Of a stretch of 64,000 nt of DNA, positions 355 through 54,511 are shown one piece after another. The DNA comes from a phage, in sequence record PZ168832.1. The stretch is one strand, 5' to 3'. The translations under genes were made by a program, and so were the position numbers. Position 1 is the stretch's first letter; the number at the start of each line of letters is the position of its first letter. The notes under the pieces are model-generated. The model was not told the DNA's origin, ran no database searches, and was given only the letters and a program-made list of their open reading frames with translations.

Positions 355-419
355 TTTCGTTTCCTCTATGATTTCTGCTTCAATGATTAAAGTATACGCC
401 CATTGAAGCAGAAAGCAAA

Positions 420-4059: not shown

Positions 4060-4162
4060 TTCAGGCGACCTTTGTTAGTGCGGAAATATTTTTTGATAGT
4101 ATAATTGCAGATATAGTATAAAGCAAAGTAAATCGAAATTGTGAACTAAATGGTAAATATTG

Positions 4163-4190
4163 TTGACTTTGTATCACTCAATATTATACT
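4163..4190 (+). promoter_or_regulatory. Sigma70-like promoter upstream of the primase-polymerase gene
   Basis: TTGACT (4163-4168), 16-nt spacer, TATACT (4185-4190), in the divergent intergenic region. Confidence 0.45.
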
Positions 4191-4219: not shown

Positions 4220-5302
4220 ATGGCTAGTTTAAGAGAAGAAGCAAAAATAATTGAAGAGTTTTTAACAGAACTCCAAAGAGGCATCCCAGAAGATGAGCGC
4301 GTCATGACGGTGTTTGCTCCTGAAGCAACGGTACAGACCGACGAGCGCGGCAAGAAGATCAACAGCAGCTTCTGGCCTAAGCCTTGGAAGTTGGGCAAGC
4401 CGCTCATGCAGCACCAAAACGGCTATGCGTGCATCAGTTCAATGCGTAAGTCTCCCAACCCAAAGACGGGTGAGATGCGATACTGGCGTACAGAGTCGGC
4501 CTTTGGTCACGGTATGGCGATGATGGTCGACGACATCGGCCACGGTAAAGGGTCCAAAGGCGATTTAGATTTGGAATTCTTTTTCGAGCGACTGAAGCCG
4601 ACTGTCATTGTCGAGACGTCACCGAACAACCACCAGCTTTGGTACTTCTTTAAAGAGCCGATTGACCATCTTATTCAGTTCAAAGCATTCCTTGGGTCTT
4701 TCGTAAACATGGTACTCAAGAAGGGCGGCGACAATACGATTAAAGACGTGACGCGCGTGGGCCGTGTTCCTGGGTGCATCAACAACAAGCGTGTGACTCA
4801 CGACGGCCCCTATAAATATGTCGATGAGAACGGCGACCCGTTCCGCTGCCGACTTGTCCATGCAGACTACTCCTTGCGCTACACCATCGAAGACATCTGT
4901 CAGGCATTTGGCTTTCACGTCGTTATGTCGCAAAAGCGTGAGATTCAAATTGACGTCGATGAATACAAGTACGATGCTGTTTGGTATAAAATAGCCCAGC
5001 AGATTCTAGCGCGCAACAAAATGGGTGAAGGGTCTGATGGCGACGTCATCGAGAACATGTCAGGCAAGTGCCGCATAATCTGTCCTTGGGGTGAAGAACA
5101 CACCAACGGCGACCCGTATGGCGCTTATTTTCGCGGCCCCATCCCTGGTGCTGAACATGAATTCGTTTTCGGTTGCGCTCACGACTGTCACCGGAAAGGG
5201 GAAGGCAAGAAAGGTTGGACCGCTTTTGTTGAAGCAGTAGTCATGCCTTATATTGAGAATCAACTTGATATGATAAATCGTCGCGCAGGTGGCATAAAAT
5301 AG
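4220..5302 (+). CDS. Primase-polymerase (archaeo-eukaryotic primase superfamily, Prim-Pol type)
   Basis: Motifs consistent with Prim-Pol: acidic MVDDIG, SPNNHQLWYF (sG.G.H-like), DVTRVGRVPGCINNK (D...R.PG..N.K); Cys/His-rich C-terminus. Confidence 0.6.
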   Translation: MASLREEAKIIEEFLTELQRGIPEDERVMTVFAPEATVQTDERGKKINSSFWPKPWKLGKPLMQHQNGYACISSMRKSPNPKTGEMRYWRTESAFGHGMAMMVDDIGHGKGSKGDLDLEFFFERLKPTVIVETSPNNHQLWYFFKEPIDHLIQFKAFLGSFVNMVLKKGGDNTIKDVTRVGRVPGCINNKRVTHDGPYKYVDENGDPFRCRLVHADYSLRYTIEDICQAFGFHVVMSQKREIQIDVDEYKYDAVWYKIAQQILARNKMGEGSDGDVIENMSGKCRIICPWGEEHTNGDPYGAYFRGPIPGAEHEFVFGCAHDCHRKGEGKKGWTAFVEAVVMPYIENQLDMINRRAGGIK

Positions 5303-5360
5303 TTTGCTTTTATTTTCATAGCAACTATAATCATTTTATGAACTGAAGCAGAGGTGATTT

Positions 5361-5507
5361 ATGCAAAGCGAAGAATTGAACATCGAGGTTGAATGTCTGT
5401 TAAAGTCGTTAGAACATAAACCAGTAGAGCTTCCGACCCTTCAAGGAGTCATGGCTCACCATCAAGCGGCTGCGGCCAAACACTACTCTGAATTTGTTAA
5501 GGAATAA
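5361..5507 (+). CDS. Small hypothetical protein (48 aa)
   Basis: GAGGTG RBS then ATG at 5361; below the ORF-track length cutoff; fills the gap before 5510. Confidence 0.3.
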   Translation: MQSEELNIEVECLLKSLEHKPVELPTLQGVMAHHQAAAAKHYSEFVKE

Positions 5508-5509
5508 AA

Positions 5510-5800
5510 ATGAACGAACCAAAAATGATGACCGTTGAAGAAGCGCAAAAGCTTCGTGTTGAAAACGAGCTTAAGCTTGTCAACCAGATTCTCCCCTTGT
5601 TTGCAGGCTACGCAGTGGAGGAAGTTGTTGGGGCAATCCTTAACGTATCCACACATGTCGCTATGAATCTTCAGGCCGAACGATTCAATACGCTGCTGAC
5701 TATTAAAAACCTTACGGTCAGTGCAACGTTCACCGTTGAGCCAGTCAATTTTGACGAAGCTGCAGCCGCGATTCAACAACAGCGAGATCAAGAGGTGTAG
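5510..5800 (+). CDS. Hypothetical protein
   Basis: 96-aa ORF in a coupled gene array. Confidence 0.5.
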   Translation: MNEPKMMTVEEAQKLRVENELKLVNQILPLFAGYAVEEVVGAILNVSTHVAMNLQAERFNTLLTIKNLTVSATFTVEPVNFDEAAAAIQQQRDQEV

Positions 5801-5801
5801 C

Positions 5802-6065
5802 ATGGGTGCTTTCCGTAACGAGTTCACCTGGAACGTTACCAGAAATCTCTCGACTTGTCCTAACTGTGCAAGCGATGTTATCAAGGTGCGGCAGCATCGC
5901 AACGCGGAGGAAGGTGCCTGGGAAGATGGCGACCTTGTAGAGTGCCAGTGCTGCTCTCATGAAGGCGTTGTGGAGCTTTACGCTGGCGAAGGTTGCCCAC
6001 CAGCAGAGCGCACAGCACGCGTTGAATGGGATGCAACAGACTCCATTGGTGATCCTCAACAGTAA
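5802..6065 (+). CDS. Cys-rich (zinc-ribbon-like) small protein
   Basis: AGAGGTG RBS then ATG at 5802; CPNC ... CQCCSHEG pattern. Confidence 0.5.
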   Translation: MGAFRNEFTWNVTRNLSTCPNCASDVIKVRQHRNAEEGAWEDGDLVECQCCSHEGVVELYAGEGCPPAERTARVEWDATDSIGDPQQ

Positions 6066-6083
6066 ATTTAGGTATAGATACTT

Positions 6084-6188
6084 ATGAAAGCCGTAAAGAA
6101 ATACACATTAATCATTTCCCTTGTCATCATCCTGGGGCTATTATATGTATTGGATATGGCATATTATTTGGCAGGGGTGAGTGGATGA
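6084..6188 (+). CDS. Small hydrophobic peptide (34 aa)
   Basis: MKAVKKYTLIISLVIILGLLYVLDMAYYLAGVSG; stop overlaps the next ATG (ATGA). Confidence 0.3.
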   Translation: MKAVKKYTLIISLVIILGLLYVLDMAYYLAGVSG

Positions 6189-6475
6189 ATATTGTAATTC
6201 TTTATGGTGAAAATATCAGCGATGACGACATCGAAGTTGCCGTTGATGTTTACGGTATCGATGAGGTGAAACGTGTTGAAGAAATTAGTGGCGCAAATCT
6301 CAATGAGATTGTCAAAGAAGCTGGCTGCCCTTCGGAAGAGATTCTGGTGGTTACTAACGATGACCTGTCTTCTATGGATCATTTGCGCCGCATCTTCACC
6401 GATTGCCAATACCTTCATGCTGTTCAATCAGTAAACAAATTGAGAAAGGCATACGCCAACCAATTTCCTTGCTGA
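6185..6475 (+). CDS. Hypothetical acidic protein
   Basis: 96-aa ORF. Confidence 0.5.
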   Translation: MNIVILYGENISDDDIEVAVDVYGIDEVKRVEEISGANLNEIVKEAGCPSEEILVVTNDDLSSMDHLRRIFTDCQYLHAVQSVNKLRKAYANQFPC

Positions 6476-6525
6476 TAGTTCACCAGTTATATTGCTTTAA
6501 ATTGAGTTTTACTATATTAATATAC

Positions 6526-6550
6526 AACGCCAGATTTCTGGCGTTTATTT
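6526..6550 (+). terminator. Rho-independent terminator
   Basis: Stem AACGCCAG/CTGGCGTT, loop ATTT, followed by a T-rich tract. Confidence 0.5.
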
Positions 6551-6611
6551 ACCGCACCCTGAAAGGATATATCCATGCAACAATATAACAAAGCCGTATC
6601 AGGAGGATTAA

Positions 6612-8282
6612 ATGTCAATTGAACATGACAATCTTCCAGAGGATACAGGTGATGAATTTGGTGCAATCTTTGACGAAATTCAAGACGCTGGTGTTTCAGA
6701 AGAAATGCAAGCAGCAGAGCAGCAAGGCACCAGAGCTAAAATAAGCCTTCAGCACAAGGCTGTTGAGAAAGATGCAGAGCGCATGGAATGCTACGGTGAA
6801 GAAGACTTGGTTGAAAGGGCACGTTTGCTCGCCTCACTTCAGGTAATCAAGTTCCCTCACTATAAACCGACGAAAGATGATTTTGTTCTTCAGGCGGACC
6901 GGACGAGTGACATGAACCGTTATGCGGTTTTCGACGCGTTGTTTGATAAGGGAAGCGGCGTTGTTCCATTCCCTCACAAAGATACTTTTCGTGGGCGCTT
7001 AGTCGACCATCGCGGCGAAACATTCACCGACCGGACGTTGGAAGTCACAGAGATAGTTGCCGCTGTCGACGCAGCAGGCCTGTCCAACCCAAACTCACGG
7101 CAGGTCGCTCAATCCTATAAGGAATGGGCCATGCGTTATCAGCGCGACGACCTGATGGACTTCTTCTACAAGAAGCTGCCTGAATGGGACGGTACTGCGC
7201 GCATTGAGAAATACCTTATCGAGCTATTCCGACCGTTCGATACAGAGTTAAACCGACAAATCGGTGTGTATTTTTGGCTATCGCTCTATAACCGCCTGAC
7301 CAACCCTGGCTGTCAAGCGCCAATATCCATTGCGCTCATCGGCGGCCAGAACGCAGGGAAGAGTTATTTTAGTAAGCTGCTTTGCGAAGCTATTATGAAC
7401 GACCGCCACGCAACACCGATTCCGTTGAACTTGGCCGCGCAAAACTTCAACCCGTTCTTGCGAGCTATTACGGGTCGCTCAATTATCGCGAACGTTGGCG
7501 AGATGACAGGCTTTAAAAAGGCCGACATCGAAAACATGAAAGCATTCCTGACTAAGACGGAAGATGACCTGGACTTCAAATTTGAAGACACGCAGGTTAA
7601 ACCACGCCAGTGGATTGCGATCATGGACGGCAACGAATACGCAGGCATGCAGCGTGACGACACGGGCAACCGTCGTGTTTACCCTATCTTTGTTGGCCAA
7701 CTTGCTGACAAGGACGGGCAACCGAACTGGTCTAAAGACTTCCAAGCTGACCTTTCCACTTTGAAAGAAGATGTTTGGCAGCTTATGGCTGAGTGCGCTG
7801 CGTGGATGGAGAAGCACGGCGAAGCAGGTTACAACGCCTTTGTTGGTGAAACGTCTCGTATGCTTACTGAGTTCAGCAAGAATGAAATGGAACGCGCTCG
7901 CGGCGTTATCCGTGATGAGATGGTCGACAACGACCTTGTTGAAGTCGTCATTACTGCGCCTTATGACCGACATCACAGCGGACGCTGGCACATCACCAGT
8001 GGTGCAATCGCTATGGGATTCAGAGCTAAGTGCGGCAAGTCGCCTTTCTCACGTACCCTTGCGCCGCACATGTCGAAACTTGGATTTGAGCCTGCAACCT
8101 ATCGCAACCAGCGTGGTTACTTTACGCCGCTGATTAAGAATGAAGCAGGGGAATACATTTCTGACTTGATGACTATCTTGGCGTATCTTATCCGCGACGA
8201 GTCTGACCCTGAAGATATTGAATTCTTGAAGAAGGTTATTGAACGCAAACGTTCTTTAGGAAGAGATAAGGATGAATTCTGA
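6612..8282 (+). CDS. Primase-associated P-loop helicase (VirE / D5-like, SF3-type)
   Basis: Walker A GGQNAGKSYFSKLL; 556 aa; sits downstream of the Prim-Pol gene, giving a split primase-helicase arrangement. Confidence 0.6.
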   Translation: MSIEHDNLPEDTGDEFGAIFDEIQDAGVSEEMQAAEQQGTRAKISLQHKAVEKDAERMECYGEEDLVERARLLASLQVIKFPHYKPTKDDFVLQADRTSDMNRYAVFDALFDKGSGVVPFPHKDTFRGRLVDHRGETFTDRTLEVTEIVAAVDAAGLSNPNSRQVAQSYKEWAMRYQRDDLMDFFYKKLPEWDGTARIEKYLIELFRPFDTELNRQIGVYFWLSLYNRLTNPGCQAPISIALIGGQNAGKSYFSKLLCEAIMNDRHATPIPLNLAAQNFNPFLRAITGRSIIANVGEMTGFKKADIENMKAFLTKTEDDLDFKFEDTQVKPRQWIAIMDGNEYAGMQRDDTGNRRVYPIFVGQLADKDGQPNWSKDFQADLSTLKEDVWQLMAECAAWMEKHGEAGYNAFVGETSRMLTEFSKNEMERARGVIRDEMVDNDLVEVVITAPYDRHHSGRWHITSGAIAMGFRAKCGKSPFSRTLAPHMSKLGFEPATYRNQRGYFTPLIKNEAGEYISDLMTILAYLIRDESDPEDIEFLKKVIERKRSLGRDKDEF

Positions 8283-8929
8283 TGAATAAAGCAATCAACA
8301 TCGCTAAATTCTTTCAAAATCTCGGTGAACTGAACAAAGAGAGTGACGTTCACGGAGAAGAAATGAACCGGATGATTTCAACCGTGTTGCGTGGTTTTGG
8401 GTACGATAAGGACTCCATCAACTGTAAGCGCACGAAGCTTGTCGATGAGACATACCTTTACTACGTTGAATTGCGCGTAGGGAAAGAGTTGATGATCATC
8501 GACCCTAAATTGGAAGGGGCGCACTGTTTTGGCGCTCACCCTCGTGCGAGTGAATTCAAGGGTCGCGGTCGCAACCGACTCCAGAAGCTTGATGATGCAG
8601 GCGACTTGAACATCTCGATGTTCCTCAAAGAGTTCCTTGCGCTGCCGAAGGTTGCATCCTCAACGGGCCGTGATGACCTGTGCAAGATTGGATTCAGAAC
8701 TAAAGATTTGCGCAATGCGCTACGCAAGAAGGGATTTGTACCTTCTTATGATAACGTCGCCGCGCTGATGGCTTCCATGGAGGAAGCTGAAGCAATGGAT
8801 AAAGTGCGCGGCTATTTCCTGAATACAGGCTACACAATGTATGAGTGGCACACCAAAGGATTGACTGTCGCCGACTTCATCTATTCATTAGAGCAGAAGT
8901 ATGTACGCAATATGCAGGCCACAGGATAA
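8282..8929 (+). CDS. Hypothetical protein
   Basis: 215-aa ORF, start overlaps upstream stop. Confidence 0.55.
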   Translation: MNKAINIAKFFQNLGELNKESDVHGEEMNRMISTVLRGFGYDKDSINCKRTKLVDETYLYYVELRVGKELMIIDPKLEGAHCFGAHPRASEFKGRGRNRLQKLDDAGDLNISMFLKEFLALPKVASSTGRDDLCKIGFRTKDLRNALRKKGFVPSYDNVAALMASMEEAEAMDKVRGYFLNTGYTMYEWHTKGLTVADFIYSLEQKYVRNMQATG

Positions 8930-8968
8930 TTATCATCAAAATATTTGCTTTTCTGACGAGGTGATATT

Positions 8969-9193
8969 ATGATTAACTTAGACAGGATTGAGTTAGCACT
9001 TAGTACCTTAATCAAATATTACCAGTTTGCTTTTAAGGCTAGTTTGTTCGGCTTGTTCAATCCTCATCAAGCAGCAAAGGCGCGAAGCAATGCCAACCGC
9101 CTGCGCTGTACTGGTATAGTTATCCACGACCGGATATTGACAGAGGGTAGATTCAGCCATGAATACACAAGGGAGAATAACAAATCAACGTAG
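8969..9193 (+). CDS. Hypothetical protein
   Basis: GAGGTGA RBS then ATG. Confidence 0.4.
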   Translation: MINLDRIELALSTLIKYYQFAFKASLFGLFNPHQAAKARSNANRLRCTGIVIHDRILTEGRFSHEYTRENNKST

Positions 9194-9368
9194 GGCTTTA
9201 CAAGTCCTCATCCACTACCTGTCACGCCTTTATCCAACGGCGCACGAGCAGAATCCATCAACGGGTCACCTGTTTAAGCGCCGTAACCTTTCGTTAAAAA
9301 CATTTGCTTTAATCCAATATGACCGCTACCTGGACGGGCGCTACTGCGGCCCGAAGGATTCTCTATGA
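9159..9368 (+). CDS. Hypothetical protein (doubtful)
   Basis: Overlaps the previous ORF by 35 nt; no clear RBS. Confidence 0.25.
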   Translation: MNTQGRITNQRRALQVLIHYLSRLYPTAHEQNPSTGHLFKRRNLSLKTFALIQYDRYLDGRYCGPKDSL

Positions 9369-9643
9369 TTACTACATACAAAGTATTCTTTGTCAAGTGC
9401 ACATCATCTATTGATGACCAATTTACTGCTGGCAAGAATTATCCCGTGATTTCTGAGTCAAGGCTAGATATAATCTTGAACGATCATGAAATCTATGAGC
9501 CGATGCCAGCGACTGCGTTTGATGTTATCGGTCATGTTCGGATTAAGACGAATGTTGAAACGATGCATGACCCGTTGTTCAAGAAGCAAATCAAGAATGC
9601 CATGCAAGACTTTTGCGCGGCCATGTTTAAATATTATAAGTGA
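9365..9643 (+). CDS. Hypothetical protein
   Basis: 92-aa ORF. Confidence 0.45.
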   Translation: MITTYKVFFVKCTSSIDDQFTAGKNYPVISESRLDIILNDHEIYEPMPATAFDVIGHVRIKTNVETMHDPLFKKQIKNAMQDFCAAMFKYYK

Positions 9644-9650
9644 GTTGAAG

Positions 9651-9872
9651 ATGAGCAAGAAAACCCTTAAGGCTGGCGACCGTATCCGTTGGGTGTCAGG
9701 ACAGCATATGCGCGCAGGCACCATCCTTGAGCTGGATGAATACCTTACCGATTCGCGCGGTCGCAATCATTACCGTGTAAGAATCGATACAGTAAAAGAA
9801 GATGACAAGTCACTGGTTGGTGAAGTCGTCATCGTAACTCCACGTCAAATCAAGGCGGCTTGTGAAGCATGA
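9651..9872 (+). CDS. Hypothetical protein
   Basis: In-frame ATG at 9651 within ORF-track entry 9486..9872. Confidence 0.45.
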   Translation: MSKKTLKAGDRIRWVSGQHMRAGTILELDEYLTDSRGRNHYRVRIDTVKEDDKSLVGEVVIVTPRQIKAACEA

Positions 9873-10024
9873 ATAAATATCAATTTAGCGATAATAAAAT
9901 CAGTAAGGCAGATGCAATCAAGCAGCTTCGCCGCGTACTTGAAGCCAGCGGCCATACGAAAGAGCGCGCACGCGTCCTGGCCAAAGAGCATTATAAACGT
10001 TTTGTGTCACAAATCAGAGGTTGA
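9869..10024 (+). CDS. Small hypothetical protein (51 aa)
   Basis: ATGA overlap with the upstream stop; below ORF-track cutoff. Confidence 0.3.
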   Translation: MNKYQFSDNKISKADAIKQLRRVLEASGHTKERARVLAKEHYKRFVSQIRG

Positions 10025-10026
10025 CC

Positions 10027-10374
10027 ATGGCTCATGTTAAAGACGAAGTGTTGTATGGCGCAGAAATTAAGAAGCGCGTGCGTGAGATGGCTTCCGGTGG
10101 CACGCTGCTGCCGCCGCGCGTTCGATGCGACCATGTGATTGGCGTATCCGGCACGAAAGAGATGGGTGTGTTGGTAAAAGACATTCGCGTTGGCGATGTC
10201 ATGGTCATAGACCGACAAGCACGCGTCGTTATCCAGGTGCAACCGAACGATGATGAAGGCTGTGTTCTATTGAAGCTGAAGAAGCTTTCATCCAGCCCAG
10301 CGAAGGCCGTCATCAAGAAGGTGTGGCCCGAAGGATTACGCAAACTCATTCGTCGACCCGTGGAGAATGTATAA
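10027..10374 (+). CDS. Hypothetical protein
   Basis: GAGGT RBS then ATG at 10027 (track start 10021 is TTG). Confidence 0.5.
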   Translation: MAHVKDEVLYGAEIKKRVREMASGGTLLPPRVRCDHVIGVSGTKEMGVLVKDIRVGDVMVIDRQARVVIQVQPNDDEGCVLLKLKKLSSSPAKAVIKKVWPEGLRKLIRRPVENV

Positions 10375-10610
10375 TGGAAGATTATATCAACGCTATGTAT
10401 ATGGCATTCTATGTCGTGCAACTTCCCAATGGCGCGGTATTCTATGGCGAGTATACCTTTGACGTTCAATATGACGTTTCAGAGCGTACAGTGTTAACAA
10501 GGGAGTTAATCGCGGACCTTAAGGACGACATCAAACGCGTCGCGCGGCAGCAGTTCAATTTGGATGACACCGTCATCGTTCGAATTACCGGAATAACAGA
10601 GGTGCAGTGA
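10374..10610 (+). CDS. Hypothetical protein
   Basis: ATG at 10374 overlapping the upstream stop. Confidence 0.5.
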   Translation: MEDYINAMYMAFYVVQLPNGAVFYGEYTFDVQYDVSERTVLTRELIADLKDDIKRVARQQFNLDDTVIVRITGITEVQ

Positions 10611-10939
10611 TGACCCGTGATCAGATACTCGCCGCGCATGAGCGTGGATTGATAAAGGAAGTTTGGAAGAAGGCCAATGTCTTTGCTGATTCTTATTACT
10701 TCTTAAAGAAGTGCATAAAAGAAAATGCAAGAATGGGCAACACAGTATTGACTTTTAATCTTCTATCTTATGGCGAAAAGCTTAATGCAATATATGCTTG
10801 TCGACTAGCCAGCATGAAGTTCGATAGAGGAAACGACGGAGAGTTGACCATCTATCGATTCTCTCACCGGACGGGTGATACAAAGATAACAAGGACACGT
10901 GACCAGATAGAGATTGACCTACTCCACTATGTAAAATGA
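10610..10939 (+). CDS. Hypothetical protein
   Basis: ATG at 10610 in a GTGATGA overlap. Confidence 0.5.
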   Translation: MTRDQILAAHERGLIKEVWKKANVFADSYYFLKKCIKENARMGNTVLTFNLLSYGEKLNAIYACRLASMKFDRGNDGELTIYRFSHRTGDTKITRTRDQIEIDLLHYVK

Positions 10940-10945
10940 ATATCA

Positions 10946-10978
10946 AAAGGTGAGCTAAATGCTTGCCTTTTATTTTAT
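10946..10978 (+). terminator. Rho-independent terminator (copy 1 of a duplicated element)
   Basis: AAAGGTGAGC-TAAAT-GCTTGCCTTT hairpin (10 bp including 2 G-U pairs) plus T-tract; identical to 12199-12223. Confidence 0.55.
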
Positions 10979-10991
10979 CAATACTTATACT
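10963..10991 (+). promoter_or_regulatory. Sigma70-like promoter overlapping the terminator tail
   Basis: TTGCCT (10963-10968), 17-nt spacer, TATACT (10986-10991). Confidence 0.35.
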
Positions 10992-11023
10992 ATTTTCATC
11001 AAGACAAACAAGTGAGGCGAATT

Positions 11024-11341
11024 ATGATTTACTTAGGCATCGACCAGGAACAAGACGAGCGTTTAGGAAGCGTGTTAAACGTAGACTTAAACACAGCTGT
11101 ACACATCAAGCCTTGGCCAGAGGACCACGGCGACGTAGTTGTACCCGTTGCGCCTTGGACGCGTTACGTGGCCATTGACAATGACGGCCTTGTACATTGT
11201 TATTCAGAAAAGCCGACCTACTTCGAAAAGTATCACCAATGGCTCATGACTGGTTGGGCATTGGTACGCTGTTGCGGCGAAGTCGGTCTGGATGGCTGGA
11301 GCTTCGAGGCTAGTGAATCGTGTGTCGAGGTGCGATTATGA
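11024..11341 (+). CDS. Hypothetical protein
   Basis: TGAGGCG RBS then ATG at 11024; the ORF-track start lies inside the terminator. Confidence 0.5.
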   Translation: MIYLGIDQEQDERLGSVLNVDLNTAVHIKPWPEDHGDVVVPVAPWTRYVAIDNDGLVHCYSEKPTYFEKYHQWLMTGWALVRCCGEVGLDGWSFEASESCVEVRL

Positions 11342-11556
11342 ATGCCGCGCTGGGTAAGCTGTCTTTCAACAAGCGCAACGAGTTGCGTATGGTGTCGCGC
11401 TTTCAACAAACGCATTTATCACTAATCAAGATTGCAAACAAGGCCTACTCTCTAAATTGTCCTGAAGAAGAATGGAAAGAATTGAATGAGCGTCGTAAAC
11501 AATTACAAAAGGCTGCGTTTAAGCTGCAGCAATATGCCATGGAGTATGCAAAATGA
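11338..11556 (+). CDS. Hypothetical protein
   Basis: ATGA overlap with upstream stop. Confidence 0.45.
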   Translation: MNAALGKLSFNKRNELRMVSRFQQTHLSLIKIANKAYSLNCPEEEWKELNERRKQLQKAAFKLQQYAMEYAK

Positions 11557-11936
11557 GAATGAAGCGTTGCCCTTACTGCCACGATGTAATGCACCTTCCA
11601 CACGAAGAGTTTGTGCAGCACATGACTAACTGTGATAAGAATCCTAAGAGCGAAAGCCAACTTGAAGAAAGAATGTTCTTGGTGTCATTCAAAGCTTCTG
11701 CTTATGAAGTGCAACGTTCTTACGGCGCACCAAGTACGATTTACTGCCCAACAACATTGAGAAGCGACATCGACTCAATTCAGCTTGCGGCCTGGATTAA
11801 CGTTAAGGAAGGAGTCACGCCGCACTTTATTGCGCGCCTCCAATCTCAGATTCTACAAATGAAGCGCGAATACAACCGTGACATAACTGAAGTGAAGGTG
11901 TTGTCTATCACGCCTATGAATAAGGAGTTGCCGTGA
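11553..11936 (+). CDS. Hypothetical protein with Cys/His cluster
   Basis: N-terminal CPYCHDVMHLPHEEFVQHMTNC. Confidence 0.5.
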   Translation: MRMKRCPYCHDVMHLPHEEFVQHMTNCDKNPKSESQLEERMFLVSFKASAYEVQRSYGAPSTIYCPTTLRSDIDSIQLAAWINVKEGVTPHFIARLQSQILQMKREYNRDITEVKVLSITPMNKELP

Positions 11937-12193
11937 ACAAGGGTCCGATGACGAAGTTGGCCGTTGCCGCGCGGAAGCTTCGACAAGCCGTTAATGGGTC
12001 GCGGCCCGTGGCGTTAACACTCGACGATGCAAAGGCACTGGTAGAGCTGCTCGACGAGCACAACCGACGCAAGAATCTGGAGAACACATTACGCTGGCGC
12101 GTTACTCCGAAAGGGCGGGAGAGCGAAAAGAAAGCTTACTTGCGGCGCAAACTAAGGTCGGTCGGCCTTCACGAAGAGGCGAAGAATATTTAA
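11933..12193 (+). CDS. Hypothetical protein
   Basis: TAAGGAG RBS 5 nt before a GTG start. Confidence 0.45.
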   Translation: MNKGPMTKLAVAARKLRQAVNGSRPVALTLDDAKALVELLDEHNRRKNLENTLRWRVTPKGRESEKKAYLRRKLRSVGLHEEAKNI

Positions 12194-12198
12194 TTCAA

Positions 12199-12230
12199 AA
12201 AGGTGAGCTAAATGCTTGCCTTTTTATTTG
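12199..12230 (+). terminator. Rho-independent terminator (copy 2 of the duplicated element)
   Basis: Same hairpin sequence as 10946-10970, followed by TTTTTATTT. Confidence 0.55.
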
Positions 12231-12243
12231 CCTGTATTATACT
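12216..12243 (+). promoter_or_regulatory. Sigma70-like promoter overlapping the terminator tail
   Basis: TTGCCT (12216-12221), 16-nt spacer, TATACT (12238-12243). Confidence 0.35.
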
Positions 12244-12265
12244 TAGTTCATCAAGCAAAGGAGAA

Positions 12266-12574
12266 ATGATTATGAGTTACGACGAAAGGTTTGGCAGAAG
12301 CGGATTATTTCATGACGCTGTACACAAAGACAGCAAAGATGTTGTCTGCGCATTCAAGGTTGATTCTTACGGTACACTGAAACCTTTTAAGGTCGGCGAA
12401 ACATACAAGCTGTTTCACGGCTGGTTGACGCGTCGCAACAACTTGCCTGACGTGGAGGTGTGGTGGATAGAATACAAGGGTCAGGCTCATCGGTGCAAGG
12501 TTGTAGAGATGCACGGCGTCAAATACTATCAATCGATCATCAGCGGCTTTGTTTTTAAAGAGGGTGAGCTATGA
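12266..12574 (+). CDS. Hypothetical protein
   Basis: AAAGGAG RBS then ATG at 12266; the ORF-track N-terminus is a terminator artefact. Confidence 0.5.
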   Translation: MIMSYDERFGRSGLFHDAVHKDSKDVVCAFKVDSYGTLKPFKVGETYKLFHGWLTRRNNLPDVEVWWIEYKGQAHRCKVVEMHGVKYYQSIISGFVFKEGEL

Positions 12575-12876
12575 GTACAGAAGCGATGAAGAAAAAGATT
12601 TTGAACGCTTTGCAAGAAGGCGTGAACTGTGGTGCTATCAAAGAGTTTAATGAGGCGCAAGTCAGCGGAGAGAATGCAATAGGATTTAGTAATAATAAAG
12701 GCGGCATCGCCGCAATCCTTTTGTTAAACAACACCGATGATAAGTTTATACTTTACGTCGGAGGGTATGAGCTTGTTGTTGATGATTTATTCATCACTTG
12801 TGCCGACGGCCTTAACCCTATGTTGACATTTGAACGTTGCGGAATTCGTGTTGCAACGTTTGGAGGGAATTTATGA
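12571..12876 (+). CDS. Hypothetical protein
   Basis: ATGA overlap. Confidence 0.5.
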   Translation: MSTEAMKKKILNALQEGVNCGAIKEFNEAQVSGENAIGFSNNKGGIAAILLLNNTDDKFILYVGGYELVVDDLFITCADGLNPMLTFERCGIRVATFGGNL

Positions 12877-13058
12877 GTACCGAAGTCCATAACGCTTCAG
12901 CACTGGTGAGCTTTTACCGCAACAAAGGCGTGTCACTCGTTAAAACGCCGCAAGGCATGCTGTTCTTTGGCACGCGCTTCCTTAAGGCTTCGGAGCGTGA
13001 AACGCTGTCCAAGTTTGACCAGAAAACATTGCACGCAGTTTGGAGAAGACAACAATGA
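12873..13058 (+). CDS. Hypothetical protein
   Basis: GGAGGG RBS then ATG at 12873. Confidence 0.45.
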   Translation: MSTEVHNASALVSFYRNKGVSLVKTPQGMLFFGTRFLKASERETLSKFDQKTLHAVWRRQQ

Positions 13059-13291
13059 CATCCAATCTTAAAGCCCGTTTGTTATTCATCAAGCCGCATG
13101 TGCCTTATAAGATTAGTAAGCGCACCTGGCTTAACATTTACAACCGCAGCGGCGACCGTTGTTTGTACAAGGCAAAGCGACGCAAGAAGGTATATTTAAA
13201 GGCTGTGGTGTCGCATCCTGTTGATGCATTCCTCGTCGGCGAAAATGAATTATCAATCGGCTATCAAATTGAATTAGGAGTAAAGAAATGA
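13055..13291 (+). CDS. Hypothetical basic protein
   Basis: ATG at 13055 overlapping the upstream stop. Confidence 0.45.
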   Translation: MTSNLKARLLFIKPHVPYKISKRTWLNIYNRSGDRCLYKAKRRKKVYLKAVVSHPVDAFLVGENELSIGYQIELGVKK

Positions 13292-13614
13292 AAATCGAAC
13301 AACTCGAAGCATTATTGGAAATGGCTGTAAAGGCAGGCGCAATAAAAAGCTATCGCCGCGAGAAGTCTGACGATGCTGCGCACTTTTGTCGCAACTTCTA
13401 TATTGTCGGCAACCTTAACGACCACTACACCATCGAGTGGTATACTAATATGATGACGCTTAAGTCGCGCACCATGGAGCTTTGGTGCGATGACGTTTGT
13501 CTTTCTCATAGCCACCCGTGCTACGACGTTGCGCTTGGATTCTTTTACAAAAGCAACCAGCCAATCGCCCACATCGGAGAGAAGTACGACCACTTGAAGG
13601 AGAAGGTTGAATAA
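13288..13614 (+). CDS. Hypothetical protein
   Basis: ATGA overlap. Confidence 0.5.
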   Translation: MKIEQLEALLEMAVKAGAIKSYRREKSDDAAHFCRNFYIVGNLNDHYTIEWYTNMMTLKSRTMELWCDDVCLSHSHPCYDVALGFFYKSNQPIAHIGEKYDHLKEKVE

Positions 13615-13955
13615 TGGAAGAGCAAGAAGGTCGTGAGCTAACGTTCGACGAGCAAATGAAAGAGCTTCAGCGCACATCGCCGCTGCGCGGTAAGATTGTT
13701 GACATCGAGGCGAGCGAATCCAATCTCACCCAGTGGCGGCTCAAGTGCACCAGCACAAGCAAGGATATGTTAAGCTTCAAAGTCGGTCATACTTATTTGC
13801 TTTATGAGGCAAAAGGACTTATTATTGATGGAAGGCAAATTGTCTTCACCGTCGTCAACGGCATGCGTTGGTTCGTGAAGCGTGATGTCGAGGGCCGTGA
13901 CATGTTTGTCGCAGGCTTTCTAGAAACAAGATTCCAATTGGAGAAGGTTAAATGA
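13614..13955 (+). CDS. Hypothetical protein
   Basis: 113-aa ORF. Confidence 0.5.
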   Translation: MEEQEGRELTFDEQMKELQRTSPLRGKIVDIEASESNLTQWRLKCTSTSKDMLSFKVGHTYLLYEAKGLIIDGRQIVFTVVNGMRWFVKRDVEGRDMFVAGFLETRFQLEKVK

Positions 13956-14284
13956 AATTGAAATGGTATGTGGACCCTGAGCCGACAGGCCAATACAGGT
14001 CATTCCAACGTCGCGGCTGGCCGACTTGTTACAGCGGCAATCCCGATAAAGAAGACTGCGAGCTGCTTGCCGCTATCGTAAGCCTCGACCATCACGGCTA
14101 TGAAGGCCACTACGCGAGAGCAACCAACCTTCGGCTCAAGGTGCGCATCCATTTCAAGGTCGCAGGCGAGGACCGCACCGGACTCTCCAAGGAAGAGTTC
14201 AGCAGCATCGCCGACGCAAAGGCGTGGCTCAAGGCTTTCTATAAGAACAACCCTAAATTCTATCCAACTAAGGATGCATCATGA
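13952..14284 (+). CDS. Hypothetical protein
   Basis: ATGA overlap. Confidence 0.5.
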   Translation: MKLKWYVDPEPTGQYRSFQRRGWPTCYSGNPDKEDCELLAAIVSLDHHGYEGHYARATNLRLKVRIHFKVAGEDRTGLSKEEFSSIADAKAWLKAFYKNNPKFYPTKDAS

Positions 14285-14772
14285 CTAATAAAACTCAGCG
14301 CATCAAGTTCGAAGGCAAAGAATACAAAATAGACGTTCGTGCAAGATTCATTGCGCGCGATTCCAATGGCGGCATTTGGTTGTATGAGTCAAAACCTGTA
14401 TGGGAAGAGCGGCGCGGCCAGTGGTTGTACGAGACTTGTGGTTCGGTTTGGTGCGAGCGCATCGACCAAGTGAAGACGTTGAAAAAGAACCGACCAGCAT
14501 CACGAGATTCTCTGCAAGAAGTCGAATCAATCAAAATCCAAGACCCAGCAACGTCGACCGATAAACAATACGCAGTCGGGCAACGTGACATCGAGCAACT
14601 CGACGAGGGTGGCTATTATACGCGCCACATCTATGCCATGACTCATGAAGGACTTTACAGCAAGTCAGACATCGCCGCTGAACTGGCTCACCGTGACTTG
14701 CAAATTGACCTTCTCAAGATAGAAGTGCAAAACTTACGCAACACCCTGTTAAATACTTGGAGCTTAAAATGA
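14281..14772 (+). CDS. Hypothetical protein
   Basis: 163-aa ORF. Confidence 0.5.
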   Translation: MTNKTQRIKFEGKEYKIDVRARFIARDSNGGIWLYESKPVWEERRGQWLYETCGSVWCERIDQVKTLKKNRPASRDSLQEVESIKIQDPATSTDKQYAVGQRDIEQLDEGGYYTRHIYAMTHEGLYSKSDIAAELAHRDLQIDLLKIEVQNLRNTLLNTWSLK

Positions 14773-15194
14773 TACAACGTTACGACCTGACATATGATGT
14801 GGTATCAGAAGATTGCGCCATCACTCCCGTTCCAGAGAGTCATGAAGGACGTTTTGTTGAATATGAGGACTATGCTGCGCTGGAAGCGAAATATAGTGAA
14901 GCGCAACGCGAGTTGGTTGCATTACGCTCACAGGTCCGTGATGCGTCGGCGCTTGTTAAGCAGTTGCACGACGTCGTTGCTACTATAGGCGTGGATGATG
15001 ATGCACCGAAGGAGGAAGCGTGGACCGTGTGGCTTGGTGGAGATAATCCGGTGCCTGGGAAGATGGTTGAGTTTGAATTACTCAACGGTTATAAATCAAA
15101 AGCTGCCGTTCCTTCGGACAGTTTGACATGGGATAAAGTCACAAGCCCGACTGGTGCAAAGATTATTGCCTATCGGGTCGTTAAGGAGGGGTGA
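14769..15194 (+). CDS. Hypothetical protein
   Basis: ATG at 14769 overlapping the upstream stop. Confidence 0.5.
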   Translation: MIQRYDLTYDVVSEDCAITPVPESHEGRFVEYEDYAALEAKYSEAQRELVALRSQVRDASALVKQLHDVVATIGVDDDAPKEEAWTVWLGGDNPVPGKMVEFELLNGYKSKAAVPSDSLTWDKVTSPTGAKIIAYRVVKEG

Positions 15195-15643
15195 TGGGTA
15201 AAAAGCTTATCGCCGCTGGTTGGGCCATCCCGAAGTGGGCTCATCGTGCGCACTACTTTGATGAAGGAGAAGTGCAAAGCCTTTGTGGTCGCGCAACTTA
15301 TTTCGGTGATGAGCGCGTCAGCGGCGATTACATCGACTCGCTTTTAGGCAAAGGTGATTGCAAGAAATGTCAGGATATATTAAGAGATATTCTTACGCAA
15401 AGAGGATTGCTTGAGCTTGATGAATCGGAGGAAGTAATTGAACTTAAGCTTGAAGCGAATTACCTTATTTATACGTTCAAGAACTATTACGCAACTAATA
15501 TGCGCTCAAAAATGAGCGAGGAAGTAATAGAAAAGGTGTTCACCTACAATCCGCTAAGGATGAATAAAACTAAATTGAAGAAGTTTAATATAATGTTAAG
15601 GAAAGAATTTAAAAGGCTTGGAGTGAAGAATTTTATATTTTAA
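15194..15643 (+). CDS. Hypothetical protein
   Basis: AGGAGG RBS then ATG at 15194; last gene before a strong terminator. Confidence 0.5.
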   Translation: MGKKLIAAGWAIPKWAHRAHYFDEGEVQSLCGRATYFGDERVSGDYIDSLLGKGDCKKCQDILRDILTQRGLLELDESEEVIELKLEANYLIYTFKNYYATNMRSKMSEEVIEKVFTYNPLRMNKTKLKKFNIMLRKEFKRLGVKNFIF

Positions 15644-15660
15644 TAGTGATTAATGTTAAG

Positions 15661-15798: not shown

Positions 15799-16499
15799 AT
15801 ACGTATTTATGACAGTTTAATCCACTAAATAATACGGATAGAACAGTGAGGAAAATACAGCGGTGTATTTTAGTGTAAATATTGAATCAAAAATAAATAA
15901 TTATGGTGCTATTATATACGCAGATTGTTTGTAATTTATAGGATATTTTATCGTGGAGTATTGGCTAACGGTGCGTTAGCCGTGGGTCTTGGTGCTTGTG
16001 GTGTTGATGCTCAGAATTTTAATAATGTTTTAGTTTTAGTAATCGTAGTCAATGATGATACGTATAAGAAAATGAGAGTCACCCCTTCACAGGATATTGT
16101 ACCGTGGCCCTGTGGTGCGCCGCGCCTGGGATTGCTGGTATACACTGGTGCTATTTTGCCGCGAAGGCAGTCATTCATACGTATCATGACGTATCATTGG
16201 GCTATTGATTTATAAGGAAAAATACGCTGATACGGATGATACGGGTGCAAACATAATATATATAGAATTCCAGAAAATTAATTAACTCCATTTTGAATTA
16301 ATTTAAATTAATTTTTTTCTACATCCTCATACTTATACTAAACTTATATTTATACGTATCATCCGTAAGATATAAGTAAAAACAAAGACTTGCGGCAATA
16401 CGGATGATACGTCATGATACGCTTCAACCAGCCATCTGCGGCTAAGTCATTGATTTGCATAACAAGCGGCGAAAGGGATGGATTTCTTTTATACGTATC
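15799..16499. repeat. Iteron cluster A: 9-10-bp CGTATCATC / GATGATACG units in both orientations around an AT-rich core
   Basis: Units at about 16057-16065, 16176-16200, 16229-16245, 16353-16369, 16398-16422, 16491-16499; AT-rich core 16261-16316; 8-bp palindrome GGCTAACG..CGTTAGCC at 15962-15980. Confidence 0.6.
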
Positions 16500-18684: not shown

Positions 18685-18712
18685 TTTACTTCTTCGTACA
18701 CTCGCGTATACT
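18685..18712 (+). promoter_or_regulatory. Cassette promoter P2 (sigma70-like)
   Basis: TTTACT (18685-18690), 16-nt spacer, TATACT (18707-18712), then conserved GTTTATATCGAGACGG. Confidence 0.5.
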
Positions 18713-18767
18713 TGTTTATATCGAGACGGGCGATGGCCTTTCTTCTACTAGCATCGGGAGCTTTATT

Positions 18768-19081: not shown

Positions 19082-19110
19082 TTTACTTATTCGTACACTA
19101 AGACTATAAT
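19082..19110 (+). promoter_or_regulatory. Cassette promoter P3 (sigma70-like)
   Basis: TTTACT (19082-19087), 17-nt spacer, TATAAT (19105-19110), then conserved GTTTATATCGAGAGGG. Confidence 0.55.
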
Positions 19111-19175
19111 GTTTATATCGAGAGGGATGAGGAAGCGAATAGGTCGCTACCCTCCCGACTAACTAGGAGAATATT

Positions 19176-19687: not shown

Positions 19688-19713
19688 TTATAATTACCCA
19701 CCGTTACTAATAG

Positions 19714-19739
19714 GCCGCGCTTAGTCGCGGCTTTTCTTC
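19714..19739 (+). terminator. Rho-independent terminator ending the plus-strand arm of the cassette
   Basis: GCCGCG-CTTAGT-CGCGGC hairpin followed by TTTTCTTCG. Confidence 0.55.
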
Positions 19740-19857
19740 GTCCCTATTTCGATGCGCTTCTCCGCGAAAACTCCTTTATCCTTCCCTTCGTCGTCGCATA
19801 ATCTTCTTCGAGATGCTCCTTAGTTCGCATAACAGGTATTACGTTAAATGGAGAACA

Positions 19858-19931
19858 TCGCGTAAGTCCTTGTTTTATATAGACACCTATATCGGACCGT
19901 TAGGGCGGGTCGCGTAAGTCGTTGTTTTATA
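19858..19931 (+). repeat. Direct repeat pair TCGCGTAAGTC(C/G)TTGTTTTATA
   Basis: Copies at 19858-19879 and 19910-19931, 52 bp apart, in a non-coding stretch. Confidence 0.5.
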
Positions 19932-20056
19932 AAGGCGCAAAACTTTCCCTTCGTTCCGAACTAAAACGAGGAATATGCCGACCCTTCGTCCGAAAATAGT
20001 ACGCATGCGAAATTACATGCATCTAGAATAATCCCCACCGATATTATCCTACACGC

Positions 20057-20120
20057 AATCATTCGCTTTCGAATCATTATGCTTCATATTGTTATGCGTC
20101 AAATCATTCGCTTTCGAATT
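20057..20120 (+). repeat. Direct repeat pair of an internally palindromic unit AATCATTCGCTTTCGAAT
   Basis: Copies at 20057-20075 and 20102-20120; each contains the inverted repeat ATTCG..CGAAT. Confidence 0.5.
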
Positions 20121-20391
20121 GTAACGCTGGAAACTGTAACGGCTATTGATTATTGCGTTCGTGTGGTTTTTATGGCATGGGTCTTTTGGTGCGTTTTGGT
20201 ACTTGATGGAATTTGCGGTACACTAATCAAAATACGACACATTTGGTCCACTAACTTTTCAAAGAAAAAGTCCCAGACAGTACCGTACTATTTTGTACCC
20301 ACAGTAAATTTGCAGTACACTCCTGCGCGGCAGGCAAAATAAAGGGCCGCCACAGCGACCCACGATTCACGGTTAAATCAACAAGCACCCA

Positions 20392-20772: not shown

Positions 20773-20847
20773 ATCGTTACCTTCAATATTTGGGTGATTA
20801 ACAATAAGTATAATAAAGCCGCATAGCGCGGCATTCAAATCGATTTA

Positions 20848-21607: not shown

Positions 21608-21809
21608 TGTCCACCGCCCCAATATCAGTTAAGAACTCGTGCAACGCGCCTTTCTTATTGAGTCTTTGCATAGTTTTGATATCATCAAGCGATATACTCT
21701 GATCACTTTGCTGTTTATCTATGCAGACAAGGCCGCCTTTCTTAGCCTTGATTGTCATGCCTTTGGCTTCAATACTTTTTACGAAATCGGACAATAATTT
21801 AATTTCCAT
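21600..21809 (-). CDS. Hypothetical protein
   Basis: GAGGTG RBS then ATG at 21809. Confidence 0.45.
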   Translation of the reverse strand: MEIKLLSDFVKSIEAKGMTIKAKKGGLVCIDKQQSDQSISLDDIKTMQRLNKKGALHEFLTDIGAVDNG

Positions 21810-21890
21810 AATACACCTCACTTGTTAACGTATAATGAGTATAACTTAATAGCCCATAAAGTAAAGGCGCTTTTCAGCGCCTTGAGTGAA

Positions 21891-31640: not shown

Positions 31641-31672
31641 ATCGCCTGGCAATGGATTGCCGCAGGATTTCA

Positions 31673-31950
31673 CGCGTATAATGACGTATCATCCGTATCA
31701 AGTAAGTAGTTGTTTTCAAAAGAATCTTACGGATGATACGGATGATACGCGTTGCCGCGATACTTTATAGGAATTCAAATAAATTAATTTAAAATTATAT
31801 ATCTAATTTAATTTTATTTTTTTATAAACTCTTATATATGAAAAGTATCCGTATCATCCGTATCATCCGTAGCACACCAGTGATAGCGCGGCTTATACAC
31901 CGATACGGATAAAAATACGCCTCATTTTATCCGTATCATCCGTATCACAC
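31673..31950. repeat. Iteron cluster B: same 9-bp CGTATCATC / GATGATACG units and a homologous AT-rich core
   Basis: Units at 31681-31700, 31727-31750, 31845-31873, 31901-31920, 31925-31950; AT-rich core 31767-31824 shares TATAG(G)AATTC and AATTAATTTAAA with cluster A. Confidence 0.6.
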
Positions 31951-32062
31951 TAATTAAGGCGCGGCTATATCGGTTGTTATACATATTCAAACCATAATTA
32001 TTGTTTGCCTAAGTTTTTTTCATTAGATATAATACACAATACTTATTTGAGGGTGGATGCGA

Positions 32063-54438: not shown

Positions 54439-54466
54439 AGTATAGGCCGAAGGTTTTGAAAGTAAA
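54439..54466 (-). promoter_or_regulatory. Sigma70-like promoter for the 54407-53638 two-gene unit
   Basis: On minus strand TTTACT, 16-nt spacer, TATACT. Confidence 0.3.
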
Positions 54467-54480
54467 TAAGGCGAAAGGTA

Positions 54481-54511
54481 AATAAAAGAAAAGCCGGAGA
54501 TTTCCGGCTTT
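54481..54511 (-). terminator. Rho-independent terminator after the ligase gene
   Basis: Stem AAAGCCGG/CCGGCTTT, 6-nt loop, followed on the minus strand by a T-rich tract. Confidence 0.5.

Follow-up and report, generated by a model that had tools for sequence, protein, structure and literature searches.

Introduction

Promoter-early stem-loop (PeSL) cassettes have been described in the T4-type phages phi1/RB49, PST, and nt-1 (Arbiol et al. 2010, PMC2839356; Comeau et al. 2014, PMC4122927). They are defined as units extending from a stop codon to the next start codon, in which a sigma-70-like promoter is combined with a stem-loop that often contains G-T pairs; the stem-loop either overlaps the -35 or the -10 element or is located between the two (PMC2839356). 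PeSLs adjoin ORFans in hyperplastic regions, where they mediate insertions and deletions (indels), gene replacements, and excision by inter-cassette recombination (PMC2839356), and both their promoter and their terminator activity have been shown with lacZ reporters (Arbiol et al. 2010, PMC2839356). The subject of the present analysis is a stretch of 64,000 nucleotides (nt) of phage DNA (sequence record PZ168832.1), in the following referred to as the window, in which one hairpin sequence occurs twice within an array of small genes, each time joined to a promoter-like sequence. The two copies, designated C1 and C2, are probably composite cassettes made up of an intrinsic terminator and a sigma-70 promoter, resembling PeSLs and duplicated around a block of four ORFan genes; this reading is taken from the sequence. 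The feature as such is real, statistically secure, and genus-wide. Its anatomy, strand specificity, conservation, promoter class, coincidence with gene-content junctions, and one deletion product are observed and are described below.

The window is from a member of the genus Wifcevirus (myophages of Escherichia coli and Shigella with genomes of ~68-72 kb, the group of WFH, WFC, ECML-117, and Bas98-101) and shows ~90% identity to database genomes. The biology of the genus is largely unexplored (PMC11990801); for WFH and WFC, terminal repeats of ~3.7 kb have been reported (PMC6563267). No tRNA genes were found in the window. Both cassettes are contained in a rightward array of tightly packed small genes (~4220-15650), which starts from a divergent promoter region and which, in WFH and WFC, points toward the right end of the genome. 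With a length of ~80 nt, each cassette occupies the entire gap between two ORFan genes (Table 1). The linker AAATGAATATC following the C1 stop codon is kept even where another gene precedes. A Pfam search with seven cassette-neighbouring genes of the window and three inserted genes of relatives gave no significant match and one sub-threshold hit, DUF7501.

The Duplicated Hairpin

The 25-mer AAAGGTGAGCTAAATGCTTGCCTTT is present exactly at positions 10946-10970 and 12199-12223 of the + strand, as claimed in the initial annotation of the window, and 0 matches were obtained in 100 shuffles. C1 and C2 are exactly identical over 27 nt in the window (10945-10971 and 12198-12224) and, in most relatives, over 30 nt. 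A search for further copies, which had been suggested along with the claim, returned just these two in the window even with three mismatches, and no weaker copy was found there at up to 3-4 mismatches or by sub-motif.

The repeated sequence folds into a stem of 11-12 bp with a 5-nt loop. On the + strand, the folding free energy (ΔG) amounts to -13.8 kcal/mol for C1 and -14.7 kcal/mol for C2 (z = -5.1 and -4.1, respectively), compared with only -8.8 and -9.7 kcal/mol on the - strand; the hairpin is more stable as + strand RNA because the two G.U wobble pairs turn into A.C mismatches on the opposite strand. It begins 5 nt (C1) or 4 nt (C2) past the stop codon and is followed by the tails TTTTATTTTATC and TTTTTATTTGCC, respectively, with 8 U in 9-11 nt. 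Intrinsic terminators are recognized by a G/C-containing stem (5-11 bp), a loop between 3 and 8 nt in size, at least 5 U among the 8 residues directly 3' of it, and a sense-strand location just past a stop codon. All of these are found here, and a consensus scan lists both hairpins as terminator-like. In the GenBank records of WFH and WFC (MK373776, MK373777) the two hairpins are annotated as "putative transcriptional terminator, -10.10", so that the terminator half of the cassette is already known. Rfam contains no corresponding family; the sole match, MicX, scored 19.6 bits (E = 0.15), the gathering score being 75. A search of the predicted read-through and promoter-initiated RNAs for attenuators or for folds occluding the Shine-Dalgarno (SD) sequence yielded nothing beyond the hairpin itself, with z-scores that were not significant, and the leaders of C1 and C2 are unstructured.

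Table 1. Positions of the cassette elements, the intervening genes, and the related candidate promoters and junctions in the window.
Feature	Position	Strand	Remarks
C1, whole cassette	10937-11026	+	Stop codon to start codon
C1, left boundary	10937..10939	+	TGA stop of upstream ORFan gene 10 (10610-10939)
C1, putative terminator hairpin	10945..10971	+	27 nt, AAAAGGTGAGC-TAAAT-GCTTGCCTTTT; G/C core 10949-10967; two G.U pairs
C1, U-tract	10968-10979	+	Directly 3' of hairpin
C1, candidate sigma-70-like promoter	10963..10991	+	TTGCCT-17-TATACT; -35 10963-10968, within hairpin 3' arm; -10 10986-10991; promoter-class site
C1, box	10995..11003	+	TTCATCAAG, over predicted start A10998 (7 nt past -10)
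C1, SD and start codon	11012..11026	+	GTGAGG and ATG 11024 of first block gene; right boundary; start matches relatives' annotation
Four-ORFan block between C1 and C2	11024..12193	+	11024-11341, 11338-11556, 11553-11936, 11948-12193; absent from L025
C2, whole cassette	12191-12274	+	Stop codon to start codon
C2, left boundary	12191..12193	+	TAA stop of last block gene
C2, putative terminator hairpin	12198..12224	+	Same 27 nt as C1
C2, U-tract	12221-12229	+	
C2, candidate promoter	12216..12243	+	TTGCCT-16-TATACT; -35 12216-12221; -10 12238-12243; promoter-class site
C2, box	12247..12255	+	TTCATCAAG; predicted start A12250
C2, SD and start codon	12258..12274	+	AAGGAG (12258-12263) and true ATG 12272 of downstream gene
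Promoter-class site	391-418	-	
Promoter-class site	4098-4126	-	
Promoter-class site	4163-4190	+	TTGACT-16-TATACT, head of array
Promoter-class site	18685-18712	+	
Promoter-class site	21838-21865	-	
Promoter-class site	54439-54466	-	
Junction E3	21800..21883	-	After tail-fibre gene; hairpin AAGGCGCTGAAAAGCGCCTT (21883-21864), -35 TTTACT over 3' arm, 16-nt spacer, TATACT (21843-21838)
Junction E4	20773..20838	-	Hairpin GCCGCGCTATGCGGC between -35 TTGAAT and -10 TATTAT/TATACT
Junction E5	54439..54511	-	Terminator AAAGCCGGAAATCTCCGGCTTT, then 24 nt later TTTACT-16-TATACT

The Putative Promoter Half of the Cassette

The distance of 16-17 nt between TTGCCT and TATACT given in the initial annotation is correct, with 17 nt in C1 and 16 nt in C2. 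The unit common to both copies is longer than the 25-mer plus promoter described there, since the -10 element TATACT is followed in either cassette by the box TTCATCAAG and, at the start codon, by ATTATGA; the promoter spacer of 13-14 nt is not shared by C1 and C2.

TATACT is 3.7-fold enriched in intergenic DNA (11 occurrences observed against 3.0 expected). The pattern TT[G/T][A/C][C/T]T-N16/17-TATACT occurs at eight sites of the window, all of them fully intergenic and facing the next gene, against an expectation of 0.10 from 200 shuffles, a significance that is overstated and partly circular because the degenerate -35 was derived from the same eight sites that it counts. Taken together, the enrichment of TATACT, the eight-site class, and the conservation pattern outlined below make the promoter credible. 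That the 3' arm of the hairpin would double as a -35 element, as initially proposed, is likewise supported by its invariance in relatives, by the promoter class, and by the recurrence of the arrangement at three further junctions.

It might be argued that the repeat is merely a duplicated intrinsic terminator, next to which the promoter would be a fortuitous match in AT-rich DNA, and that the array would be transcribed entirely by read-through from the upstream promoter. In accordance with this, sigma-70-like matches of 9/12 positions are as common in shuffled sequence as in the window (32 found versus 30 expected), and the database annotators marked terminators alone. We nevertheless regard this explanation as unlikely. 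TATACT and its distance of 16-17 nt remain invariant at both copies while their neighbourhood varies; the copies have TATACT and TTCATCAAG in common, not the spacer between the elements; the eight similar sites are without exception intergenic and correctly oriented; and a natural C1/C2 chimera, described below, retains the exact promoter geometry.

Conservation within and beyond the Genus

All 29 Wifcevirus records of the phage collection (29/29) contain exactly two matches to the cassette. Outside the genus, it was found neither in 50,697 phage records nor in E. coli genomes, IMG/VR, metagenomes, or GTDB genomes, with the exception of one terminator in a Clostridia metagenome-assembled genome (MAG; CANQCL010000002.1, L026:3413-3437). 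The stems AAAGGTGAGC ... GCTTGCCTTT of the latter are alike, its loop is TGTTT, and TTGACT-17-TATAAT follows. A true relationship was rejected, as only the stems are common and no flanking homology exists; the likeness is probably convergent or due to chance.

For the comparison by position, 16 genomes were used. The C1 hairpin is invariant in 16/16 of them. In C2, the stem is equally invariant and the loop occurs in the forms TAAAT, TAAGT (Bas100, TH32), and TATAT (RCIP0319). In the main alignments, 1 of 54 hairpin columns is variable, and one further loop variant was found separately. No variation was seen in the 30 columns of TATACT plus TTCATCAAG (0/30), in comparison with 16 of 69 columns for spacer, discriminator, and leader and with 28-37% of columns for the orthologous upstream coding sequences (CDSs). 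TATACT and the spacing of 16-17 nt are thus unchanged, while the spacer sequence, the 3 nt past the -10 element, the leader, and the flanking genes vary. A single TTCATCAAT variant was encountered in a metagenome contig. Both G.U pairs are kept in >30 copies, and substitutions in the hairpin are confined to the 5-nt loop; since the stem never varies, no covariation is visible. Changes restricted to the loop, wobble pairs that are tolerated on the sense strand only, and a -10 element at fixed distance are what would be expected of a terminator hairpin fused to a promoter.

Throughout the genus, spacers of the C1 type are constant, and so are those of the C2 type, yet about half of their positions differ between the types. 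The duplication is therefore older than the genus, and the shared blocks have since been kept identical, either by selection or by very local conversion.

Further Putative Terminator-Promoter Junctions

Three additional junctions, E3 to E5, with a comparable layout are located on the - strand of the window (Table 1). The leader of E3, AACAAGTGAGGTGTATTATG, is nearly identical to that of C1, and the E3 hairpin is annotated as a terminator in WFC. In six genomes, the hairpins, -35 and -10 elements, and leaders of E3 and E4 are kept and the promoter spacer varies. In some relatives the gene following E3 switches identity exactly at the SD-ATG, and in RCIP0319 a C>T exchange in the E4 stem is compatible with pairing only as U.G on the transcribed strand. 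The occurrence of unrelated hairpins in like layout at E3-E5 argues that the hairpins are generic terminators rather than one recognition site.

This bears on the possibility that the hairpin, TTCATCAAG, or both constitute a site read by a phage factor, by which read-through or initiation would be switched during infection, one factor reading both copies. An antiterminator or nut-like site, a site for an RNA-processing or RNA-binding protein, a DNA operator over the -35 element, or a regulator binding over the transcription start could be envisaged. Such a site would account for the identity over 27-30 nt, including both G.U pairs, which has been maintained since an old duplication though half of the spacer differs; it would also account for TTCATCAAG, which is conserved and confined to these two promoters. 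In addition, AAGGTGA in the left arm, with the ATG of the loop behind it, resembles an SD sequence plus AUG. The loop, usually the specificity determinant of RNA-binding sites, is however the very part that varies in C2 of three genomes, and E3-E5 place unrelated hairpins in the same position. Furthermore, the overlap of -35 element, pairing partner, A-tract, and U-tract would constrain nearly every base of the stem twice, leaving the copies near-identical and the loop alone free to vary, which already explains the invariance of the stem. Neither an Rfam match nor a candidate factor was found, and the neighbouring genes are without Pfam match. A phage-encoded reader is thus considered quite improbable. 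If it existed, the cassette pair would be a timed switch opening or closing two ORFan blocks in an unusually fast infection cycle, and not passive punctuation.

A second duplicated promoter module was noticed on the + strand at 18685-18740 and 19082-19140, where TTTACTT.TTCGTACACT...TATA(C/A)T.GTTTATATCGAGA precedes small genes.

Start Codons at the Cassettes

According to the initial annotation, the ATG in the hairpin loop produces false N-terminal extensions in the list of open reading frames (ORFs). This holds for the second copy, where ATG 12212 is in frame with ATG 12272 and yields a 120-amino acid (aa) ORF (12212..12574). It does not hold for the first one, where ATG 10959 and the CDS beginning at 11024 are in different reading frames and the ORF from this ATG has just 18 codons; the extension listed for C1 starts from GTG 11012. 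Indels of 1 nt in the leader interrupt the frame from the C2 loop ATG in WFH, WFC, an uncultivated virus genome (UViG), and RCIP0363, and the loop codon is GTG in Bas100 and TH32. As the frame is not conserved, the 12212 extension is false.

Were the start at this site real, the SD-like AAGGTGA of the left arm would serve the loop ATG, and either a hydrophobic micropeptide of 17-22 aa or a longer isoform of the downstream protein would be made. The SD-like sequence, its 5-nt spacing, and the ATG are indeed present, AAGGTGA serves as SD elsewhere in these phages, and the extended ORF has been called in several GenBank records. Apart from the broken frames, the C1 ORF lies in another frame, with a length determined by one single-nucleotide polymorphism, SD and AUG would both be sequestered in the hairpin, and hydrophobicity is a trivial outcome of translating a T-rich tract. 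Translation from the loop can, therefore, hardly be credited at all.

Among the database entries, AV128 (L016:3776-4138) and kaset (L018:3785-4141) contain CDSs that agree in length and position with the loop-ATG extension and are likely mis-annotated, as is a small ORF across C1 in Bas98 (Bas98_0076; L010:2492-2584). RCIP0319_00075 (L012:3773-3916) corresponds to the 47-aa first ORF of an insertion before C2, with its ATG at a junction resembling hairpin left arm plus loop.

Gene Turnover and Recombination

Plasticity around the cassettes was examined with a gene-family map and at base-level junctions. WFC and Bas100 contain an inserted gene of 64 aa immediately ahead of C1. In WFC, where it is gene 11, a perfect direct repeat of 21 nt, AAATGAATATCAAAAAGGTGA, borders it on both sides; the repeat consists of the stop linker and the hairpin's left arm, and its left copy is the SD of the inserted gene. 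CWP003 gene 36 (82 aa) is inserted just after C1 and is flanked by GAGGTG..ATTATG (SD-ATG). In RCIP0319, three genes (1.45 kb) are inserted right before C2, with a left junction similar to the hairpin's left arm and loop. RCIP0363 and ECO71P1 have lost the gene that follows C2, and ECML-117 and FEC19 have a different paralogue in its place. In total, five gene-content events adjoin the two cassettes; other events fall away from them.

The RCIP0319 insertion (L020:1608-3036; PV464738.1 55007-56435) comprises, besides the 47-aa ORF, a multi-pass membrane protein (phrog_4899) and a homologue of DpdA-like queuine tRNA-ribosyltransferases (phrog_887, E = 4e-71), and may represent a 7-deazaguanine DNA-modification (anti-restriction) module. 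In the window, tandem paralogues are found at 11553-11936 and 12272-12876. Among relatives, family 14 is present one to two times and family 16 zero to two times with variable partners; the pattern indicates local duplication and loss within the array.

A product of recombination between the cassettes is contained in the assembly of Xanthomonas pisi DSM 18956, in which the 943-bp contig NZ_JPLE01000312.1 (L025) carries a single C1/C2 chimeric cassette and genes 12-15 are missing. The contig is identical to C1 through TATACTc and, from agTTCATCAAG onward, to C2 of a metagenomic relative; the C1xC2 junction reads ..TATCAATACTTATACTCAGTTCATCAAGCAAAGGAG.., and the promoter geometry is left exact. 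Wifcevirus DNA in a Xanthomonas assembly is presumably a contamination. An assembly artefact through k-mer collapse is unlikely, since C1 gives way to C2 only past the 27-nt repeat, within a stretch of ~7 identical nt.

Breakpoints were scanned for by correlating the pairwise distances 200 nt to the left and 200 nt to the right of each position, a measure that is independent of rate. The correlation is 0.8-0.9 inside genes and ~0 across C1. It drops equally to ~0 at the 9|10 and 12|13 gene boundaries, both of which are without cassette, and stays at 0.75-0.85 across C2 in genomes sharing the downstream gene, where there is no break. On the basis of two scans, a role of the cassettes as privileged recombination hotspots was rejected. 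Mosaicism in the array runs gene by gene; the cassettes are usable as junctions and are not needed for it.

These data also speak to the idea that the repeat is mainly mobile or recombinogenic, being similar to a miniature inverted-repeat transposable element, a homing target, or the attachment sequence of a PeSL mini-circle, with its regulatory appearance being secondary. Insertions exactly at the cassettes in WFC, RCIP0319, and CWP003 and the C1xC2 deletion product L025 would be compatible with it. Against it, the positions are fixed, exactly two copies are present in 29/29 genomes, and, save for the stem-only Clostridia terminator, there are no copies beyond the genus. Terminal inverted repeats, target-site duplications, and endonuclease genes are lacking, and mosaic breakpoints are as strong at ordinary gene boundaries. 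Neither a homing endonuclease nor a transposase was found among the inserted or neighbouring genes, which comprise ORFans, the phrog_887 DpdA-like gene, and the membrane protein. Mobility as the primary property is accordingly very improbable.

Proposed Function and Significance

In the reading preferred here, that of a terminator fused to a promoter, transcripts arriving from upstream would stop at the RNA hairpin GGUGAGC-UAAAU-GCUUGCC with its U-tract, with 3' ends predicted near 10974-10976 and 12227-12229. Because of the two G.U pairs and the annotated ΔG of -10.1, the terminator is probably leaky. On the DNA level, the 3' arm of the same palindrome would supply the -35 element TTGCCT to a promoter of the host RNA polymerase with TATACT as -10 element. 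Re-initiation would take place at about A10998 and A12250 and lead to a short unstructured leader with SD. The net effect would be an insulation and a renewed boost of transcription along the long array, the internal promoter being shielded from occlusion by read-through polymerase. As a by-product, the conserved cassettes would offer patches of homology by which genes are gained, lost, or replaced, as described for the PeSLs of T4-type phages.

Termination, initiation, their efficiencies, and the timing class are what we infer from the features described; the sigma-70-like promoters and the ORFan content are the sole pointers to an "early" timing. The initial annotation had assumed that the array is punctuated into separately regulated blocks. 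Support for this was not obtained, as both cassettes carry identical promoter and hairpin signals, from which insulation and re-initiation would be expected to recur under one and the same control.

Several points weigh against the preferred reading. The hairpin is modest for a terminator, with a G/C core of 7 bp that includes the two G.U pairs. The 9/12 promoter match taken alone is no rarer than in shuffled sequence, and the statistic of the promoter class is in part circular. The TTCATCAAG box is unaccounted for by the model, and none of the remaining six class promoters has it. The chimera is known from one 943-bp contig of a contaminated Xanthomonas assembly, and the loss of distance correlation at C1 is matched at boundaries without cassette and not repeated at C2. 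Finally, no transcript data (5' or 3' ends) for Wifcevirus were found in the literature.

If the proposed function applies, a little-studied and reportedly very fast-replicating genus without a transcription map would gain eight candidate host-type promoters and five terminator-promoter junctions. For the annotation of gene starts, a correction follows, in that the ORF from the loop ATG at 12212, annotated in several GenBank records (among them AV128 and kaset), is a false extension. The PeSL idea would be extended beyond T4-like phages, with compact stop/restart cassettes letting ORFans or morons come and go while the expression signals are kept; the insertion with the DpdA-like gene lands exactly at a cassette, and one natural deletion product is known. 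For engineering purposes, the cassette boundaries would be obvious safe insertion sites.

Other Repeats in the Window

Clusters of short ATCCGTATCATCCGTATC / GATACGGATGATACG repeats, similar in appearance to iterons or operators, are present at 16167-16389 and 31662-31966; both regions are intergenic and AT-rich, with 15.5 kb between them. In addition, a 391-nt non-coding gap was noticed at 19688-20137, which contains a strong terminator (19712-19733), TCGCGTAAGTCNTTGTTTTATA in two copies (19858-19934), and AATCATTCGCTTTCGAATCATT repeats (20057-20137). It is situated near the terminal-repeat boundary deduced from the WFH coordinates.

Comparison with Known Systems

In T4, the distance from the MotA box to the -10 element is 12 +/- 1 nt. 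A reading of TGCTT in the loop and arm of the hairpin as a MotA box was rejected, since its distance to the -10 element is 19 nt. The lambda nut sites (boxB, nutL/nutR) provide another instance of a near-identical short hairpin at two places in early operons; they are situated downstream of their promoters and are read by the N protein via the loop. In C1 and C2, by contrast, the hairpin lies upstream of the adjacent promoter, a U-tract follows, and the loop is the variable part.

With canonical Rho-independent terminators, as predicted by ARNold or TransTermHP, the cassettes share the G/C stem, the 5-nt loop, the U-rich tail, and the location just past a stop codon. They differ from them in that the 3' arm and the tail would double as promoter DNA and in that one sequence is kept identical at two loci throughout the genus.

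From the PeSLs of phi1 and RB49, which are present in ~50 copies per genome, the present system is distinguished by its low number of two cassettes plus three further junctions in 64 kb. The host genome is that of a ~68-kb Wifcevirus myovirus, a distant relative of Pbunavirus and not T4-like. The -35 element is weak (TTGCCT) compared with the exact consensus in PeSLs, a conserved TTCATCAAG box is present in addition, and mosaic breakpoints are not concentrated at the cassettes. In other respects, the correspondence is close. C1 and C2 are intergenic units that begin with the stop codon of one gene and end with the SD and start codon of the next, and they combine a promoter that, judged by sequence, is sigma-70-like (9/12) with a stem-loop within or beside it that contains G.U pairs. 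Their neighbours are ORFans in a plastic region; indels and replacements adjoin the cassettes and are also seen at gene boundaries without one. The PeSL subclass in which the stem-loop lies over the -35 element has the layout of C1, C2, and E3, and that with the stem-loop between -35 and -10 has the layout of E4. As with PeSLs, recombination of two flanking cassettes has left one chimera, with the genes in between excised, in the single short contig L025.

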